This document shows positions 1,833-7,824 of a DNA stretch of 7,824 bases, piece by piece. The DNA comes from a virus. Taxonomy: Duplodnaviria > Heunggongvirae > Uroviricota > Caudoviricetes. Both the position numbers and the translations under genes were made by a program. The notes beneath the pieces are model-generated. The model searched no databases. It was not told the DNA's origin and saw only the letters and a program-made list of their open reading frames with translations. Position 1 is the stretch's first letter, and each line of letters starts with the position of its first letter. The stretch is taken from the IMG/VR virus record IMGVR_UViG_2671180680_000001. One strand, written 5' to 3'.

Positions 1833-2615
1833 TTATGCTGCCCTTTTCATTGCGAATGGAACGCGAACAAACACGATCTCTTTATAGCAGCGGCAGTTTG
1901 GCAGCTCGCCCGCGTGGCCGGTCATGCCGTCCAAAGTTGGAGGTGAATCCCAGCGGACGAATTTACCTTTCATGTGATCGTGGGAATCTCGGACATCGCC
2001 ATCATCGGCTGTACGCCAAATATAACCATCCGAGCCAATAGCTATCGCTCGGGCCATATCCAGCGCGCCCGTTGCTCTTCCCAGTTCCGTTCGGGCAATC
2101 AGATCGGCCCTAGACTTAGCAACATCGCCGGTAGATGCAATCTCTTTAGCAAACTGCTCCGCCCGACCACCGGTGACAACAGCCTCTATCGCTTTGTTCT
2201 GGATGTCGTACACCCTGTCTGCGGCCTCGAGAGGCAGAGATTTGATGTACTTGACCTGTTCGGCGATGATGGATTGCATCACCTGGCCCACAGGAGCGCT
2301 TTCCACAAGATTGCGGAGCTCGCGACTGATGTTCTTGCTGTGTTGCCGCCAAACTTTCTCGTTCTGCCGGGTTAGGTCCGCAGTAAAGTTTTCCGCGACC
2401 TTTGTCGCCCAGGGGGTGATGATTTCACTGTAACGCTCCAGCGCCGCAATAATTTCCGTGATACTGTCATTTGAACCATCGTAGCGACCATTTACGATGT
2501 CTCCGACCGCCCTCGCTATCCTGCGTAGGCTGGTTCGATACCGGATTTCCGCCTGACGGCTCCTGCGGTTCGTCATCAGGTTCGCCGATGCCGGGCGGCG
2601 CTTCATCTTCGGCAT
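1833..2615 (-). CDS. Phage minor head / head-morphogenesis protein (Mu gpF / SPP1 gp7-like), 260 aa
   Basis: 260-codon ORF immediately downstream of the portal gene, the usual position for Mu F-like minor head proteins. ATG at 2615..2613 is preceded by GAGGA about 9 nt upstream. Basic N-terminus; ends with a Cys-containing tail (LPNCRCYKE). The 5' end overlaps the portal 3' end by 149 nt in another frame. Family assignment is from recalled similarity and synteny, not a search. Confidence 0.55.
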   Translation of the reverse strand: MPKMKRRPASANLMTNRRSRQAEIRYRTSLRRIARAVGDIVNGRYDGSNDSITEIIAALERYSEIITPWATKVAENFTADLTRQNEKVWRQHSKNISRELRNLVESAPVGQVMQSIIAEQVKYIKSLPLEAADRVYDIQNKAIEAVVTGGRAEQFAKEIASTGDVAKSRADLIARTELGRATGALDMARAIAIGSDGYIWRTADDGDVRDSHDHMKGKFVRWDSPPTLDGMTGHAGELPNCRCYKEIVFVRVPFAMKRAA

Positions 2616-3860
2616 TCTCGATGTCCTCGTCGGTAATGGATGCCCCGATGCCGGTTACGTCAGAATTTTCTCGCAAATCAGTCATAGCGGCTTTCAGTGT
2701 CATCAGACCATCACCCAGCGCCGTACTGATTGCGTTGGTGGTGTTTAACGCCACCGTTGAGCGATCGACATCAGACATTTGCCAGAGCGGGTTAAACTCA
2801 AACGTGAAATCGTCCGGCAGCGGCTTGCCAAGTTCCGAACGATGCATGATGTCCAGTATCCGCCGCACCGGAAGACGTAAACGCCTCTCCTGCAACGAAC
2901 TGATGCGATCGTAATAGTTGGCAAGGTCTGCATCACCGGTAGAAAATCCTTTCGGGGACTGTCCGAACAACCGCACCAGTGGGATACCAACAGCGCCACT
3001 AATCTGTTCTACAAACTGCGAAAGGATGTCATCCAGACCACTGAAGCTGTACTGATGGGTTTCAAACTTATCCCGCGAGTCCATGAGCGTCATGCCTTCA
3101 TTACTCTGGAACTGTCGAATCAGGTCGATATTCTTCAGCAACGCTTCATACGCAGGACCACCAAGTGCGATAAGCTCGCGTAGCTTCTCCACGCTGTAGG
3201 TACGCAAATGCGCCTTGTAGACCAGCTGCGCCGCGCCGACAGTAGCGCTGTCGAACGCGGTAAGACGATCCCAGATACGCTCTACAACCGACATTCCCCA
3301 TTCGTTCTCGGTCATCTTCTGCTGAAATGGCAACGTGACGCCATCAAAGCGAATCAGGCGACTGTGATGAATGCGCCAGGCAGGAATTCCCGTTGCTGTG
3401 GTCACCACATCGTAAAACTCAGGTTTACCCAGGTCCGGCCCCATATCTTTAATGCGGCGGGTCAGTGCCGGGTCGACCGTGCCTACCCCTCAATCATGAT
3501 GAAACCCACCGCGCCGCCGTAGAGGCGCGACCATTTCAGCACGTCATTCAGCGCATCCCAGATTTGCAACTCATCCAGTTGTGATTCGAGAATGCCACGA
3601 TCTTTTGCATCAATTTCCGAAGTGATGCGAATGCCTTTGCGGGTCATATCATCCGGGATAGCATCGACTGCTTCGCCGATGATCTAGGATGAACGATAGG
3701 ACCATTCCACCAGCATGCGGTTACGACTGGTGAAATTAGCCCGGTAGGTGGATGCTGAGTGCTGGTTAGGTGTCTGCATCCCTACGCGGGCAATAAAATT
3801 CTCATAACCATCAGCTGTGGCCTGCACAGTTCGCCGCAGGGCTTGTTTGTTTCGTGCCAT
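2467..3860 (-). pseudogene. Portal protein gene, disrupted (in-frame amber plus 1-nt deletion in a homopolymer)
   Basis: ATG at 3860..3858 overlaps the terminase large-subunit stop (ATGA overlap). Frame A reads MARNKQALRR...VEWSYRSS, then TAG (plus 3684-3686), then IIGEAVDAIPDDMTRKG...GFIMIEG, then TAG (plus 3483-3485). The downstream 325-aa ORF (3444..2467, portal-like) is in a different frame that opens at 3489. Adding one G to the GGGG run (plus-strand CCCC 3486-3489) joins the two frames into a ~464-aa protein (IEG-VGTVDPALTRRIKDMGPDLGKPEF...). Length 1394 nt is not a multiple of 3. Confidence 0.75.
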
Positions 3861-5263
3861 CAGGCCTGTCTCCCCAGCTGTTCCCAGATATCCAGCGATG
3901 TATCGATTGGCGCGAAGGCCATAATGAATGCATCAGCAACGTTTGGTGACGGTATCTCGCGTTTTGCGAGGTCTTTTTTACTTTCGACCATCACACGTCC
4001 GTTACGGTCGAAATCACGATGAGGTGTTGTCAGTTCCAGTTTCAGCTTTTCAAGCAACGGACAACGAGAATCTATGCTGATCAGCTCATCCACAGGATAC
4101 TGTTCTCCGTTGTTAATGGCGTTAAACGTATTTCTGAAACGGTCAGCCACCAGCCACCATGCCTGAGCCTTAAGATTTGCGAAAAAGTCTTTGTTGGGGA
4201 TGCCGTTGTACTCGTCATCTGGCTCATGCACACCAGCACCGGCGTTAAACCTCTGGTAATTCACACGTCGCGCGTATGCGTTCTCGCTCTTCCGGTCAGC
4301 GTTAATTTCAGAGAATTTAGCACCGGCAGACGCACCAACACCGATAGAGTCGTAAACAATATCTGCTTCACGCTCCAGCGCCGCCTGATAAGTACGCTGG
4401 CAGCTCTTCAGTAATTCATCTTCTTTGGCCTTCCATTCGTCGGCCCAGAAAACAACGGATCCGTGACGGTAAACGTTAGCGCACTTATCTGTACCACTGT
4501 CAGCCACGTCAAAGCCAATACGCTTTCTTCCACTGGGTTCGAAATTTAACGTTTTGTGCGCATCCACTGCGGCTTCTATCCAAGACAGTTTGATGATTGC
4601 CGCATCATCATCAGACTCCGGAACGCCCTCATACACATGTTTAAAACCATCCGGATCACGGCGTCGCGCCGCGTCGATAACCTTAAGCATGGTGTCAGAC
4701 AGAAACGGATTTTCGTCATAGTTAATTTTGCGGATGAGAGTGCCTTCGGGCGGATCAACAACGAAGTTGCGCCAGACGAAATCAGTAACAAGTCCGGGGT
4801 TGAATATGAACCAGCATTCCGAACCCTCTTTACGGATCGTTGGCTCCAGAATTTTCCACTGGTATTCCGTCAGTGCGTGGGCTTCTTCCAGCCACAACAC
4901 ATCGATCCCCTCCAGTGACTTAATTTCTTCGATGTTGCGCCATAATCCATAAAAAACAAATTCCGAGCCAGTAACCCGGTTAATGATTTTGTTGTTCAGA
5001 ATACGGAAACGGTGCCGCAGACCAAACCTGTCTATCTGAATTTTGAGCAGGGTATACACCGACTCTTCGATTTTATTCTGGATCTGACGGGCACAACAAA
5101 AACGCAGGGTGTATTTATTCGACAGAAATATGGCAATGCCAGCGGCATCCCATGATTTTGACGATGACCGACCACCATAAAGCACTTTGTTACGTGCCCG
5201 CATAGTCCAGAAACTACGTAAAGCCGGATTCAGCGTCGGTTTGGATGTCAGAGTAGAAGTCAT
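3860..5263 (-). CDS. Terminase large subunit (PBSX/Terminase_3-like ATPase-nuclease)
   Basis: Long uninterrupted ORF with a Walker-A-like P-loop YGGRSSSKSWD near the N-terminus, preceded by an NPALRSFW segment typical of this family, and a long C-terminal nuclease-sized region. Sits directly after the terminase small-subunit gene. Start is ambiguous: in-frame ATGs at 5302, 5290, 5287, 5281, 5263 and 5203; 5263 is chosen (GGAG about 12 nt upstream, 50-nt overlap with TerS). The 5371 start in the ORF track is rejected as a read-through extension. Confidence 0.85.
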   Translation of the reverse strand: MTSTLTSKPTLNPALRSFWTMRARNKVLYGGRSSSKSWDAAGIAIFLSNKYTLRFCCARQIQNKIEESVYTLLKIQIDRFGLRHRFRILNNKIINRVTGSEFVFYGLWRNIEEIKSLEGIDVLWLEEAHALTEYQWKILEPTIRKEGSECWFIFNPGLVTDFVWRNFVVDPPEGTLIRKINYDENPFLSDTMLKVIDAARRRDPDGFKHVYEGVPESDDDAAIIKLSWIEAAVDAHKTLNFEPSGRKRIGFDVADSGTDKCANVYRHGSVVFWADEWKAKEDELLKSCQRTYQAALEREADIVYDSIGVGASAGAKFSEINADRKSENAYARRVNYQRFNAGAGVHEPDDEYNGIPNKDFFANLKAQAWWLVADRFRNTFNAINNGEQYPVDELISIDSRCPLLEKLKLELTTPHRDFDRNGRVMVESKKDLAKREIPSPNVADAFIMAFAPIDTSLDIWEQLGRQA

Positions 5264-5978
5264 TGAGGTCACGCTCTCCATTGCCATCATCAATACCTGC
5301 ATCACGGCGAAGACGATCAGCCTCCAGAGACACCTTATCAGTGGCGGCCTTGCGGTAGGCTGTATCAGCAAATATTTTTCCTACCGTCGCAAGCGTGCCA
5401 ACGATGGACTCAATACGAACTGTATTGCGCATCATTGCTTTCTCGGCGGCGCTGATATTTTCAATCAGCATCTTCCTTTCCTGGTCCCCATTAGCATCTT
5501 CCAGCGACACCAACCACCGACCAATATTCTCTGCAGCGACAAGGTTGTTAGCACGAAGGCGAAATAATTCGTCCTCGAGCGTCAACGCTTTAGCGTCCTC
5601 TATCACCTCATCTTTGAGCAGAAGGCGACGGGCATAACCACCGTGTTTTAATGCCTGCTGGTTACCGGGTTGGAATGGGTTAGTCGGGGGATCGGTACGC
5701 ATTCCGCGTATCGGTTTCGTATCCGGTGTAGATTCTGTTTTTAGTTGCGTACTTTTTTGTGTAAGGCCAGTAATGGCAGGCTTTCTGCTGGTACGCACTT
5801 TCCTTTTTTGCGTACCATTTTTGCAAACCTGCGTACCGCCACTGCGTGCCCAACCAAGCTTTTTGGCCCTCTTCCTGATAGCCCCTTCTGTAACGCCGTA
5901 TTTCTCGCCTATATCACGGAGGCTAAGGACTCCGGCCCGGTATGCCGATTCGATGGCCTCCCAGTCCGGTTTTGCCAT
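5214..5978 (-). CDS. Terminase small subunit (N-terminal HTH DNA-binding domain)
   Basis: 254-codon ORF immediately upstream of TerL. ATG 5978..5976 is preceded by AGGAAG about 8 nt upstream. N-terminus (LSLRDIGEKYGVTEGAIRKRAKKLGW) looks like a helix-turn-helix, followed by a basic low-complexity linker (GTQ/K/R repeats) and a helical C-terminal region, the usual TerS architecture. Confidence 0.65.
   Translation of the reverse strand: MAKPDWEAIESAYRAGVLSLRDIGEKYGVTEGAIRKRAKKLGWARSGGTQVCKNGTQKRKVRTSRKPAITGLTQKSTQLKTESTPDTKPIRGMRTDPPTNPFQPGNQQALKHGGYARRLLLKDEVIEDAKALTLEDELFRLRANNLVAAENIGRWLVSLEDANGDQERKMLIENISAAEKAMMRNTVRIESIVGTLATVGKIFADTAYRKAATDKVSLEADRLRRDAGIDDGNGERDLNDFYSDIQTDAESGFT
5745..5850. 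repeat. Cluster of GGTACGCA(A/G)-type 8-9-mers with flanking A/T tracts inside the TerS ORF; candidate pac / terminase recognition elements
   Basis: Plus-strand copies: TTGCGTACT 5745-5753, TTGCGTACC 5808-5816, CTGCGTACC 5829-5837, degenerate CTGCGTGCC 5842-5850, and an inverted copy GGTACGCAC 5790-5798. Spacings of 63 and 21 bp between same-orientation copies; T6 runs at 5753-5758 and 5804-5809. The repeats lie in the TerS linker region and encode GTQ/KVRT repeats. Confidence 0.4.
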
Positions 5979-6062
5979 GATTATGCTTCCTGTGATTTAC
6001 TGTTATCGCTGCCTGTCACAATAGGTTGCTTTAATTCTTCCTCATCACTCACTCCTGCGACG

Positions 6063-6088
6063 CTCCGTGGCAGGGCCCCCCACAGGAG
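6063..6088. other. Imperfect inverted repeat / hairpin with C-rich loop in the TerS-DedA divergent intergenic region
   Basis: CTCCGTGG (6063-6070), 9-nt loop cagggcccc, then CCAC-A-GGAG (6080-6088): 8 bp of pairing with one bulged A. No U-tract on either strand, so not a canonical intrinsic terminator. Confidence 0.3.
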
Positions 6089-6092
6089 TACC

Positions 6093-6123
6093 TTGTAAAT
6101 GTAAGGTGTTTAAGCCTAAATTA
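6093..6123 (+). promoter_or_regulatory. Weak candidate sigma70-like promoter for the DedA-like gene
   Basis: TTGTAA (6093-6098), 19-bp spacer, TAAATT (6118-6123); each hexamer matches consensus at 4 of 6 positions, about 50 nt upstream of the ATG at 6176. Poor match; listed only because the plus-strand gene needs its own promoter. Confidence 0.15.
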
Positions 6124-6175
6124 AGTCGTATCACGGTTAAATAGCAAAGAAAAATTCACAGAAGGAAAGACATTG

Positions 6176-6685
6176 ATGGAGTGGATAAATGCTTTGATGA
6201 ACTATTTTGTACTTCATCCATATCGCCTATGGGGGCTTCTTTTTATAATAGCGTTCACAAAATCCACTTTACTCATTTCGGCGATATTGCCACCAGCATC
6301 AATTATGATGGCCACTGTAATTACAGTCAGCAAGACGACTCTTTCACCATGGGAAGCTGGAATCACGGTCATGAGTGGCGCATGGTGCGGTACTATCGTT
6401 AATTACCATCTTGGTATAATAATTGGGCATATCCCTCAACTTGCATGTATAATATCAAGCCGTTCCAATACAATAGAACGGGTTCGCCTTCAGTTGCAAA
6501 ATAACTCTGTGTCAATACTTTTCACTTCGCGCTTTATCGCCGTGCTGCGTTATATTGCTCCTTTGGTGGCAGGAATGTTGCAACTTCATCCAGTGAAAGT
6601 GTATACAGTGAGTCTGATTTCAGCTGCTAGCTGGTCAGCACTTTATGTTGGTAGTTTTAGCTTCGTGTTGCCTTTTTTTAGCTAA
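6176..6685 (+). CDS. DedA/YqaA-family (VTT-domain-like) small inner-membrane protein; moron-like cargo gene
   Basis: 169-codon ORF from ATG 6176 (GAAGGA SD 6161-6166; the in-frame TTG at 6173 is less likely). Very hydrophobic, with about four predicted TM segments. Recalled resemblance to E. coli YqaA / DedA family: ILPPASIMMATV, SPWEAGITVMSGAWCGTIVNYHLG, and FTSRFIAVLRYIAPLVAGM resembling the family's R-x-(I/V)-P-x-x-G signature. Clearly more AT-rich than flanking phage genes and transcribed opposite to the late operon. Confidence 0.65.
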   Translation: MEWINALMNYFVLHPYRLWGLLFIIAFTKSTLLISAILPPASIMMATVITVSKTTLSPWEAGITVMSGAWCGTIVNYHLGIIIGHIPQLACIISSRSNTIERVRLQLQNNSVSILFTSRFIAVLRYIAPLVAGMLQLHPVKVYTVSLISAASWSALYVGSFSFVLPFFS

Positions 6686-6773
6686 ACTGCCCATAAAAAG
6701 CTCTTGCGAATCCAGCTTCCCCCATTCCTCTGACAACAGAATCTGATTTGAAGGATAATGAGTAAAATTACCG

Positions 6774-7244
6774 CTACCCCCCAAGGCATTGGATCCTGAT
6801 GTACTCCTGAAGCATTCTCAATGCTGTCTGGTCGCTGATGATTCCGTCCCGGATACCGAGAACGTTTCGTCCAGCAACTGGAGAGAGTTCGACGGTGGCA
6901 TCATTGCCCATGCCGGAGGCGCTGGAGGTTTCGGCTGAGGATGGCACAGGGCATTTTCCTTTGACGAGCACCCGACCACCATTATCAAGCTTGCGCCGAA
7001 GAGCATCATTTTCAGCTTTCGCATCAGCTAACTCCTTCGTGTATTTAGCATCGAGTGCATCAGCATCACGCTGGCGCTGCTGCATGTCAGTAATGGTTGC
7101 GTTCGCCAGCTTCAGTTCTCTTGCGTTTTTGTCGCGCTGCTCTTTGTAGGTAATGGCGTTATCACGGTAATGATTAACAGCCCATGACAGGCGGACGATG
7201 ATGCAGATAACCAGAGCGGAGATAATCGCGGTGACTCTGCTCAT
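6774..7244 (-). CDS. Rz: Rz i-spanin (inner-membrane spanin subunit)
   Basis: Translation [77 protein letters not shown] matches recalled lambda Rz over about the first 85 residues; the C-terminal half is divergent but retains the conserved Cys. ATG 7244..7242 overlaps the R stop (ATGA). The GTG at 7256 in the ORF track is probably not the start. Confidence 0.88.
6818..7024 (-). CDS. Rz1: Rz1 o-spanin (outer-membrane lipoprotein), embedded in the +1 frame of Rz
   Basis: 68-codon ORF entirely inside Rz. MRKLKMML...LIMVVGC has a lipobox-like VVGC followed by the proline-rich KPPAPPAW motif, matching recalled lambda Rz1 (MLKLKMML...VVVGC...KPPPPPAW). AAGGAG SD lies 7 nt upstream of ATG 7024. 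Confidence 0.8.
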
Positions 7245-7738
7245 TGCTGCCCCCACAAACAGACTTCACGCTCAATCTCACGACGGGTCATCAGCCCTTT
7301 CCATTGCTTACCGCCAGCATATGTCCAGCGACATAGCTGGTCACATGCGCCTTTGATATAGCCCTGGTTTATTTTGCGAAGAAGCGTCGATGTTCTGAAA
7401 TTGCCAGCGCCCACGTTGTAAACGAACGAGTAAAGAGCGCCGCGCGTTGTTTCCGGTATATCGACTTTGATGTACGGGTTAATTTGTCTGGCGACAGTGG
7501 CAAGGTCTTTATTCAGGAGAGCTTTGCATTCTGCTTCGGTATACGTTTTACCAGGCATGATGTCTTTTCCGGTGTGTCCGTGACATACAGTCCATACACC
7601 AATGATATCTTTGTATAGTATGTAGCTGACACCTTCCAGACCATCGTTACCACCTGGGCCAGTGATTAACACAGATGCTATAGCAACAGCCCCGCCACCA
7701 ATAGCAACTGCAACAGCCTTGCGTAATGATGGCGACAT
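7241..7738 (-). CDS. R: SAR endolysin (P21 R-type lysozyme with N-terminal signal-arrest-release domain)
   Basis: 165-aa product. N-terminal Gly/Ala-rich weakly hydrophobic SAR segment ([23 protein letters not shown]) followed by lysozyme core ([10 protein letters not shown]...[10 protein letters not shown]...[19 protein letters not shown]); near-identical to P21 R as I recall it. SD GAGGTGA precedes ATG 7738..7736, which overlaps the upstream ORF stop (TAATG). Confidence 0.9.
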
Positions 7739-7824
7739 TATTCACCTCTCGCAGCCTTACTAGACTGGCCCCCTGAATCTCCAGACAACCAGTATCACTT
7801 AAATAAGTGATAGTCTTAATACTA
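7738..7824 (-). CDS. 3' end of putative (pin)holin gene, partial at window edge, apparently frameshifted
   Basis: The frame ending in TAA overlapping the R start codon (TAATG) encodes ...[10 protein letters not shown], resembling the recalled C-terminus of S21 pinholin (...RRKAARGE), but is closed by TGA only 18 codons upstream. The only frame open to the window edge encodes ...[20 protein letters not shown]... (TYL also fits S21) and runs into R. One extra G in the GGGGG run (plus-strand CCCCC 7769-7773) would join them as ...[25 protein letters not shown]. Confidence 0.3.

Follow-up and report, generated by a model that had tools for sequence, protein, structure and literature searches.

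A mini-DedA membrane protein gene carried as a moron between the lysis and packaging genes of a defective lambdoid prophage

DedA proteins are now viewed as lipid-carrier flippases on which cell-wall synthesis and polymyxin resistance depend. The COG0586 lineage, represented by YqjA, YghB, DedA, YabI and YohD of Escherichia coli, UptA of Bacillus subtilis and PA4029 of Pseudomonas aeruginosa, has been tied to the recycling of undecaprenyl phosphate (UndP) and to polymyxin resistance (PMC12893004). Its defining features are two acids, E39 and D51, which lie in the first re-entrant helix and are ascribed to proton binding, and two arginines in the second one, R130 and R136 of YqjA having been assigned to binding of the UndP phosphate (Todor, Herrera and Gross, 10.1101/2023.01.04.522824). 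On the phage side, the closest described gene is bor of phage lambda, located on the complementary strand (46459-46752 in NC_001416) directly after Rz (45966-46427), and morons in the slot between Rz and the terminase genes are already known. Here we describe a gene encoding a short DedA-type protein (below, mini-DedA) that occupies this slot in a stretch of phage DNA of 7,824 nt (IMG/VR record IMGVR_UViG_2671180680_000001; this whole stretch is further referred to as the window). The PGAP annotation of the gene, 'DedA family protein', is not new either, and a literature search for phage-encoded DedA proteins or for the accession WP_011069285 yielded nothing.

The mini-DedA gene is the sole sizeable gene on the plus strand of the window (the coordinates of all features are collected in Table 1). 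Its product has 169 amino acids if translated from the ATG at 6176, or 170 with the TTG at 6173 that PGAP takes as the start. The Pfam search reported a single family for it, VTT_dom (PF09335; 52.4 bits against the gathering cutoff of 33.9, E=9.2e-14, residues 41-161), and the hydropathy profile is that of a polytopic membrane protein. The AlphaFold model, built on an alignment of 59 sequences (the alignment of 20 subfamily members had given a poor model with the predicted local distance difference test, pLDDT, of 54.6), is all-helical, with pLDDT 85.4 and the predicted template modelling score (pTM) 0.80. In this model the first re-entrant unit (15-52) is predicted to consist of helices 15-30 and 32-35, a break at 36-40 (ILPPA) and helix 41-52; the second unit (111-134) is formed by helix 111-118, a break at 119-121 and helix 122-134; and the last helix spans residues 139-168. 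The invariant P39 and the nearly invariant P129 are placed at or near the re-entrant tips, and hence the model predicts the architecture of the DedA superfamily, that is, a transmembrane core with two re-entrant helix-turn-helix units and a proline at or near each tip. Searches of PDB with the protein and its model gave no significant match, there being no solved DedA structure for comparison, and the fold search in BFVD was likewise without significant matches, the best viral ones being weak giant-virus models of a 'SNARE associated Golgi protein'. The only match of the protein in PHROG is weak and belongs to a family of unknown function.

A sequence-only reading of the window had proposed a polytopic membrane protein of 169 amino acids from the DedA superfamily, encoded by a gene of low GC content that is antisense between the lysis cassette and the packaging genes and convergent with the lysis operon. 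All these points are borne out: the first by the domain match, the hydropathy profile and the model; the location and orientation by the flanking Rz/Rz1 and small terminase subunit (TerS) genes, to which the gene is oriented tail-to-tail (lysis) and head-to-head (terminase); and the base composition by the GC content of 41.8% (38.2% in the third codon positions, GC3), compared to 48.8-55.2% (GC3 46-61%) in the neighbouring genes. Moreover, the span marked in that reading (6093-6720) brackets the open reading frame (ORF) and matches the cassette shared with Citrobacter at 6101-6696 (see below).

The assignment to YqaA, made in the same reading, has to be replaced. When the eight paralogues from E. 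coli K-12 are scored with the hidden Markov model (HMM) of the subfamily, YabI (60.8 bits), DedA (58.7), YqjA (57.8), YohD (44.5) and YghB (43.7) come far ahead of YdjX (11.6), YqaA (8.8) and YdjZ (-1.3), and therefore the protein belongs to the COG0586 lineage rather than to YqaA. The charge pattern is also opposite to that of YqaA: according to the literature, COG1238 proteins have acids in the first re-entrant helix and no arginines in the second one, whereas mini-DedA has K29/A41 in the former and retains R119/R125 in the latter. What mini-DedA and YqaA (142 amino acids) have in common is that both are short proteins of the DedA superfamily without the long C-terminal extension.

Within COG0586, mini-DedA combines conserved and deviating features. 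A gap-free alignment equates K29, P39, A41, R119 and R125 of the window protein with, respectively, E39, P49, D51, R130 and R136 of YqjA. The features shared with the COG0586 proteins are the VTT domain, the closest profile similarity (44-61 bits), the re-entrant helices with a proline at the tip, the R-x5-R pair (R119/R125) and the tryptophan partner (W153, corresponding to W146 of UptA). In the alignment of 20 subfamily members R119 and R125 are invariant, and the motifs KST, LPPAS and LFTSRF(I/L)AVLRY are invariant or nearly so. The acidic pair, on the other hand, is absent: Lys and Ala stand in the E39 and D51 columns in every subfamily member, and LPPAS takes the place of LPGD. In an alignment of 171 proteins to the HMM, no protein outside the subfamily has Lys in the E39 column, where nearly all outgroup DedAs have Glu; in the D51 column the outgroup residues vary. 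The supposition of the sequence-only reading that transport depends on the proton-motive force thus loses its ground, the acids to which proton coupling is ascribed being replaced throughout the subfamily. In UptA, E32 forms hydrogen bonds with R118 and W146, a set of residues that influences binding of the C55 phosphate carrier (C55-P) (PMC11474028). The counterpart of this triad in the window protein is K29, R125 and W153, with no compensating conserved acid in the membrane, which makes the putative substrate site unusually basic. Further, the protein ends at residue 169, whereas YqjA, YghB and DedA continue for approximately 50 residues more, and hence the C-terminal transmembrane (dimerization) helices of the latter are missing. 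The identity to any of the K-12 paralogues is 17-23%, and the generic DedA model PRK10847 scores 31 bits against the cutoff of 236. Judging by its sequence, the protein is a member of a distinct 'mini' DedA/VTT subfamily of Enterobacterales within the COG0586 lineage (YqjA/YghB/DedA/UptA). As for the nearest outgroup relatives (P0040-P0171), these are mostly proteins of 630-740 residues with an N-terminal DedA domain that has Glu in the E39 column, presumably the fusions of DedA with PAP2 or rhodanese domains described in the literature.

The gene is a moron, a horizontally acquired foreign cassette placed antisense in the late operon, and does not belong to the phage core. Two relatives whose terminase and lysis genes are the same, a prophage of E. 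coli (L016) and the Klebsiella phage ST16-OXA48phi5.2 (L017), align to positions 5807-5985 and 6784-6900 of the window, and the distance between the aligned flanks is 57 and 208 bp, respectively, compared to about 800 bp in the window. As the relatives join 5985 to 6784 by these short segments, the DNA in between (5986-6783) is an insert. The cassette inside it is 82% identical to a prophage of Citrobacter youngae (L002, 9927-10520) and 77% identical to a chromosomal locus of C. meridianamericanus adjoining dinI (both by blastn). The C. youngae prophage is unrelated to the window phage, having a GpA-type terminase, a GH19 endolysin and different holins, and the homologue there again lies between its lysis and terminase genes in antisense orientation. 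The left junction (5979-6105) is confined to cassette-bearing genomes; no convincing target-site duplications or terminal inverted repeats flank the cassette.

The gene was found in only 6 of 5426 complete E. coli genomes, every time in the slot between Rz and the terminase, and at least two of these six carriers are similar to Shigella or enteroinvasive E. coli (EIEC), namely FDAARGOS_943, rich in insertion sequences (IS), and an O121 strain with ipaH. No close homologue was detected in 50,697 phage genome records, while IMG/VR contains 14 Shigella-type copies, the C. youngae prophage and one further copy beside dinI. An identical protein is encoded on at least 1000 contigs, mainly from S. 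flexneri, but also from S. sonnei, S. dysenteriae and some E. coli. Hence, the earlier suggestions that the gene is added cargo and that DedA is unusual in this role both agree with these data. The comparison with lambda bor, also drawn in the sequence-only reading, is correct with regard to the locus: as in bor and other lambdoid morons, the gene lies downstream of Rz and before the packaging genes, on the opposite strand, has a deviating base composition and is absent from sister phages, and by analogy expression in the prophage would be expected. With Bor itself there is no sequence or structural relation, as Bor is a lipoprotein of the outer membrane and mini-DedA is a polytopic VTT protein of the inner membrane; Pfam gives VTT_dom only, and position and strand are all that is common to the two.

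The gene has been retained while the phages around it decayed. The ORF is intact and 99-100% identical across all complete genomes examined, and at least four remnants that decayed independently and in different ways (the window, FDAARGOS_943, SFBU1023 and the O121 strain) have kept it intact. In the window, the portal gene carries a deletion of 73 bp at 3478/3479 relative to E. coli FDAARGOS_943 (L001, 16171-16243) and is now split into three ORFs, so that this prophage is unable to make heads. Other cassette-bearing copies are broken differently, by IS2 in the large terminase subunit (TerL) gene, by an internal stop codon in the head-morphogenesis gene or by IS911 in the TerS gene. The ratio of non-synonymous to synonymous substitution rates (dN/dS) is 0.11-0.25 throughout the family, 0.15-0.24 between the window coding sequence and its homologues, and 0.24 between two phage-borne copies. 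The gene is therefore under purifying selection.

Most members of the subfamily are ordinary chromosomal genes. A survey with one genome per species yielded 64 loci, from about 30 Enterobacter species and from Lelliottia, Kosakonia, Citrobacter, Hafnia, Morganella and Arsenophonus, of which 61 are chromosomal and three are prophage-borne. In the chromosomal lineages the GC content of the gene matches that of its flanks, while the Shigella copy shows the largest deficit among all 64 loci (-8.5 points). In 21-30 genomes of Enterobacter and Lelliottia the gene order is mgtE (minus strand), mini-DedA (plus strand), SDR (minus strand); in Hafnia mini-DedA is situated within approximately 3 kb of mgtE, and in several Arsenophonus genomes directly upstream of it. 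The consensus of the PhoP box is (T/G)GTTTA-N5-(T/G)GTTTA, and PMC5775216 accepts sites with at most two mismatches to it. The 1.28 Mb of family loci contain 22 perfect boxes, and all 22 are found 99-122 nt upstream of the mini-DedA start on the same strand, in the intergenic region between mgtE and mini-DedA (Enterobacter loci within L028-L056).

Expression data are consistent with this arrangement. A colistin-resistant derivative (ColR) of E. hormaechei 4236, studied by RNA-seq, has lost mgrB, the repressor of PhoPQ (PMC10434160). According to the supplement of that paper, N5F16_08425 (MgtE) is induced 19.6-fold in ColR and 7.7-fold in the CSA-13-resistant derivative, N5F16_08430 (DedA family protein) 23.1-fold and 11.9-fold, and N5F16_08435 (SDR) 3.1-fold and 2.4-fold. 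At the E. hormaechei loci L033 and L043, mgtE, DedA and SDR follow one another in this order as well, and the product of L033 is a KST/LPPAS protein of 167 amino acids. We infer that the Enterobacter orthologue is a gene of the PhoPQ regulon, and the mgtE-DedA-SDR unit appears to be an undescribed module of it. The DedA protein is among the most induced membrane proteins of the mgrB-deletion strain and has never been singled out, the authors of the study not having set it apart from other DedAs (PMC10434160). The window protein and the mgtE-linked one (L033/L043) belong to the same subfamily, being 49-50% identical, with identical KST, LPPAS and RFxAVLRY motifs. Their genes differ in setting: the Enterobacter gene is chromosomal, has the GC content of its host, lies between mgtE and SDR and is preceded by a perfect PhoP box at about -103, whereas the window copy is phage-borne and AT-rich and has neither the distal PhoP box nor mgtE.

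The upstream region of the window copy nevertheless retains part of the chromosomal pattern. Homology to the Citrobacter copies sets in no more than a few bases from the direct repeat at 6107-6123, and the repeat itself is homologous to the conserved proximal block GTTGAgGgTT-TATTTAa that precedes the genes of Enterobacter, Lelliottia and Citrobacter. The -10-like block, which is homologous as well, starts 13 nt past the end of the repeat, and upstream regions of homologues contain a purine-rich equivalent of the AAGGA element. Given the conserved repeat and the -10-like block, the cassette seems to bring its own putative promoter of the activator type, without a -35 hexamer. A strict scan for sigma-70 promoters did not call TTAAAT, as it has no -35 hexamer, and the promoter and terminator sites that were reported all lie inside the ORF, at chance frequency. 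The repeat also resembles a PmrA-type site, YTTAAK-N5-YTTAAK. No riboswitch or leader RNA was matched in Rfam, and neither the GC-rich hairpin at 6063-6088 nor the region 3' of the stop codon gives a better fold than shuffled sequences.

Taken together, the data suggest a function that benefits the host: mini-DedA would be an inner-membrane handler of an anionic or carrier lipid, not coupled to protons, within a programme of envelope stress, a proposal to which we assign about an even chance of being correct. The protein would serve the lysogen and not the phage, acting as a facilitator (scramblase or flippase) or a binder of an anionic lipid without proton coupling. UndP or a related phosphorylated carrier or phospholipid would be the likeliest substrate, a UndP-type carrier being the best guess because of the lineage of the protein and the retained arginines. 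In this way it could support remodelling of the envelope under PhoPQ-type stress (low Mg2+, acid pH, cationic peptides). The possible tie to the envelope and to membrane-active antimicrobials, raised in the sequence-only reading, finds indirect backing in the Enterobacter orthologue, with its PhoP box and its induction in the mgrB-deletion mutant. The gene would be transcribed in the prophage state from its own promoter, and during lytic growth the opposing Q-dependent late transcription would override it, as is thought for bor.

Several observations weigh against this proposal. E. coli and Shigella are not known to carry mgtE, and so any link that MgtE may have with the protein in Enterobacter is not reproduced for the window copy. 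For the UptA equivalogs of NCBIfam (NF052604 and NF052605), which demand 250 and 300 bits, the scores reach just 19.9 and 16.3. The chief weakness is that the E39/D51 pair is reported to be essential in YqjA/YghB and in UptA (10.1101/2023.01.04.522824); in its absence the protein may be no transporter, or its activity may be another one. The C-terminal helices, missing here, are called dimerization helices in the literature, and it is the UptA dimer that binds C55-P better (PMC11474028). N5F16_08430 is placed in the subfamily by synteny within the species rather than by its own sequence. With regard to regulation, the cassette lacks the perfect distal PhoP box of Enterobacter, and the repeat at 6107-6123, which has three mismatches to the consensus, does not stand out from chance as a PhoP box (26 such sites are present in the window, with 14 expected); the statistical claim was rejected, and the repeat was retained as a lead based on homology. 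Unlike in the lambdoid morons, no intrinsic terminator or significant hairpin was found after the gene. Finally, the main text of the phoPQ microarray study of S. flexneri 301 names no DedA or phage gene, several genes being listed there by SF numbers without names and the Sf301 tag of mini-DedA being unmapped (PMC5775216).

The linkage to mgtE could also mean that mini-DedA is an accessory of Mg2+ homeostasis, working with or like MgtE to balance the Mg2+ supply or the membrane charge and providing Shigella with additional fitness at low Mg2+. Such a role would agree with the position of the gene next to mgtE in Enterobacter and Lelliottia, near it in Hafnia and directly upstream of it in several Arsenophonus, and with the joint induction of the two genes in E. 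hormaechei (23.1-fold and 19.6-fold). It has parallels among other DedAs, as the Xanthomonas protein XdfA is needed for growth at low Mg2+ and for Mg uptake (PMC10470534), and Mg2+ or Ca2+ rescues the phenotypes of the yqjA yghB mutant of Klebsiella pneumoniae (PMC10846249). However, three basic residues in the core (K29, R119, R125) with no conserved membrane acid would make a poor site for a cation, the copies in phages and in Kosakonia have no mgtE alongside, envelope defects can be the primary cause of the Mg2+ phenotypes that other DedA mutants show, and the co-regulation by PhoP suits envelope remodelling equally well, so that we regard this role as unlikely. A function directed at phages, such as superinfection exclusion, a block of DNA injection or timing of holin or spanin action, seems to us very improbable. 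Prophage inner-membrane proteins often mediate exclusion, the gene stands beside the lysis cassette in two unrelated prophages (the window and L002), and its orientation would imply expression in the lysogen. Holin modulation and superinfection exclusion, both suggested in the sequence-only reading, nevertheless find no support: at 61 of the 64 species-level loci the gene is an ordinary chromosomal one with host-matched GC content and no phage nearby, no defence model of PADLOC matches the family at E<=1, the sole PHROG match offers no function, and the gene is retained in remnants that can no longer make phage.

The loss of E39, D51 and the C-terminal helices, together with the lack of a terminator and of a canonical promoter, would be compatible with a protein that is no longer a transporter, being either an inactive, tolerated passenger or a dominant-negative partner that poisons the host DedA dimers. 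The many partial copies at contig ends in the 90% cluster, which could include IS-disrupted genes, may point in the same direction. We find this unlikely, as the substitutions are invariant hallmarks from Enterobacteriaceae to Morganellaceae and not random decay, the dN/dS values are low (also between the phage copies), expression of the orthologue is strongly regulated, and the ORF is nearly identical and uninterrupted in the complete genomes. Returning to the host-benefit handler of anionic or carrier lipids, a more far-reaching version of it would make the K29/A41 proteins a distinct class, proton-independent translocators of UndP, undecaprenyl pyrophosphate (UndPP) or anionic lipid that act in the PhoPQ programme and have been spread by phages into Shigella/EIEC together with a stress promoter. 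This version has, in our estimation, a low probability. If it were true, the translocator would supply carrier lipid for modification with 4-amino-4-deoxy-L-arabinose (L-Ara4N) or of the O antigen and would aid resistance to cationic peptides or intracellular fitness, and a phage-disseminated determinant of polymyxin tolerance or virulence would be standing under the annotation 'DedA family protein'.

To the extent of the literature searches, four findings are new: a mini-DedA subfamily with the Lys variant, its connection in Enterobacter with PhoP and mgtE, the repeated capture by temperate phages and the persistence in decaying Shigella prophages. A conserved natural subfamily that has kept the phosphate-binding arginines and exchanged the proton-binding Glu for Lys provides a ready-made test of the proton-coupling model. 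The cargo is nearly fixed in S. flexneri and has outlasted the decay of its prophages, which suggests usefulness to the host, and carriage by phages is a route by which envelope-remodelling functions can spread between Enterobacterales. Should the gene prove to be without a phenotype, the finding would shrink to an ordinary moron of unknown function.

Table 1. Features of the window around the mini-DedA gene, with the evidence for each.
Feature	Position	Strand	Evidence and remarks
Mini-DedA (VTT-domain) coding sequence, 169 aa	6176..6685 (including stop)	+	ORF list, Pfam, AlphaFold, dN/dS
Mobile cassette (promoter-like element, ribosome-binding site, ORF, ~10 nt)	6101..6696	+	blastn to Citrobacter copies
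Whole insert, ~800 bp	5986..6783		comparison with related phages without the gene; junction DNA 5986-6100 and 6697-6783
Direct repeat TGTTTA-agcct-AAATTA, degenerate PhoP-box-like (or PmrA-like: TTTAAG-N5-ATTAAG)	6107..6123	+	homology-based
-10-like TTAAAT, putative cassette promoter	6137..6142	+	consensus TtaAAT in 31 distinct family upstream regions
Shine-Dalgarno-like AAGGA	6162..6166	+	read from sequence; 9 nt upstream of ATG
Endolysin	7241-7738	-	Pfam Phage_lysozyme
Rz i-spanin	6774-7256	-	Pfam Phage_lysis, 1.1e-29; convergent with the mini-DedA gene
Rz1 o-spanin	6818-7024		embedded in Rz; phrog_3198, 1.7e-26
Small terminase (TerS)	5214-5978	-	phrog_370 'terminase small subunit', 7.5e-95; divergent from the mini-DedA gene
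Large terminase (TerL)	3860-5371	-	Pfam Terminase_3
Portal (DUF1073), region	2467-3860	-	

The window is a piece of a defective lambdoid prophage, whose phage genes are read on the minus strand, and this prophage, the carrier of mini-DedA, is a lambdoid one with a myovirus-type tail. In addition to the genes listed in Table 1, the minus strand encodes a head-morphogenesis protein, a DUF2213 protein and a cement protein. Positions 1-84 are the end of an IS1, and the last 64 bases (7761-7824) are the end of an element of the IS2/IS3 family, both being 100% identical to the IS copies of L001; with IS ends on both sides, the prophage piece is an IS-bounded remnant. The longest ORF of TerL has a TTG start and overlaps the TerS gene by 158 nt, and the related TerL gene in L016 is annotated at 1401 nt; probably, the true start is an internal ATG.

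Other carriers of the gene show various genomic contexts. In the C. youngae prophage the slot between Rz and the terminase (L002, 8311-10510) contains genes for a DUF6694 protein and mini-DedA together with two unannotated ORFs, and thus seems to be a hotspot for multi-gene cargo; an ars operon and dinI are found further along this prophage. The mini-DedA-bearing prophage of the E. coli O121 strain 201805972 (L102) has at its tail-fibre end (7813-9576) the gene of the type III secretion system effector IpaH, annotated as ipaHa, so that this prophage lineage, in a host resembling EIEC/Shigella, carries at least two items of cargo. In the IMG/VR record UViG_2847583173_000003 (L101, 3145-14316) a 73%-identical copy comes after dinI, immediately beyond the left end of a Mu-like prophage with MuA, MuB and a repressor; after the copy come genes for SRAP, SMEK, Macro and DarT-HD, seemingly a defence island. 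In C. freundii the gene is found on an 82-kb record labelled as a plasmid (L104, NZ_CP056259.1, 1-18507), where an ars operon, dinI, the VTT gene and an Ail/Lom gene are situated beside icd. Plasmid carriage is the less likely reading in this case, since the record contains the core chromosomal genes icd, rluE, mnmA, hflD, purB and phoPQ, and it looks like a chromosomal segment with a prophage remnant at the icd attachment site.

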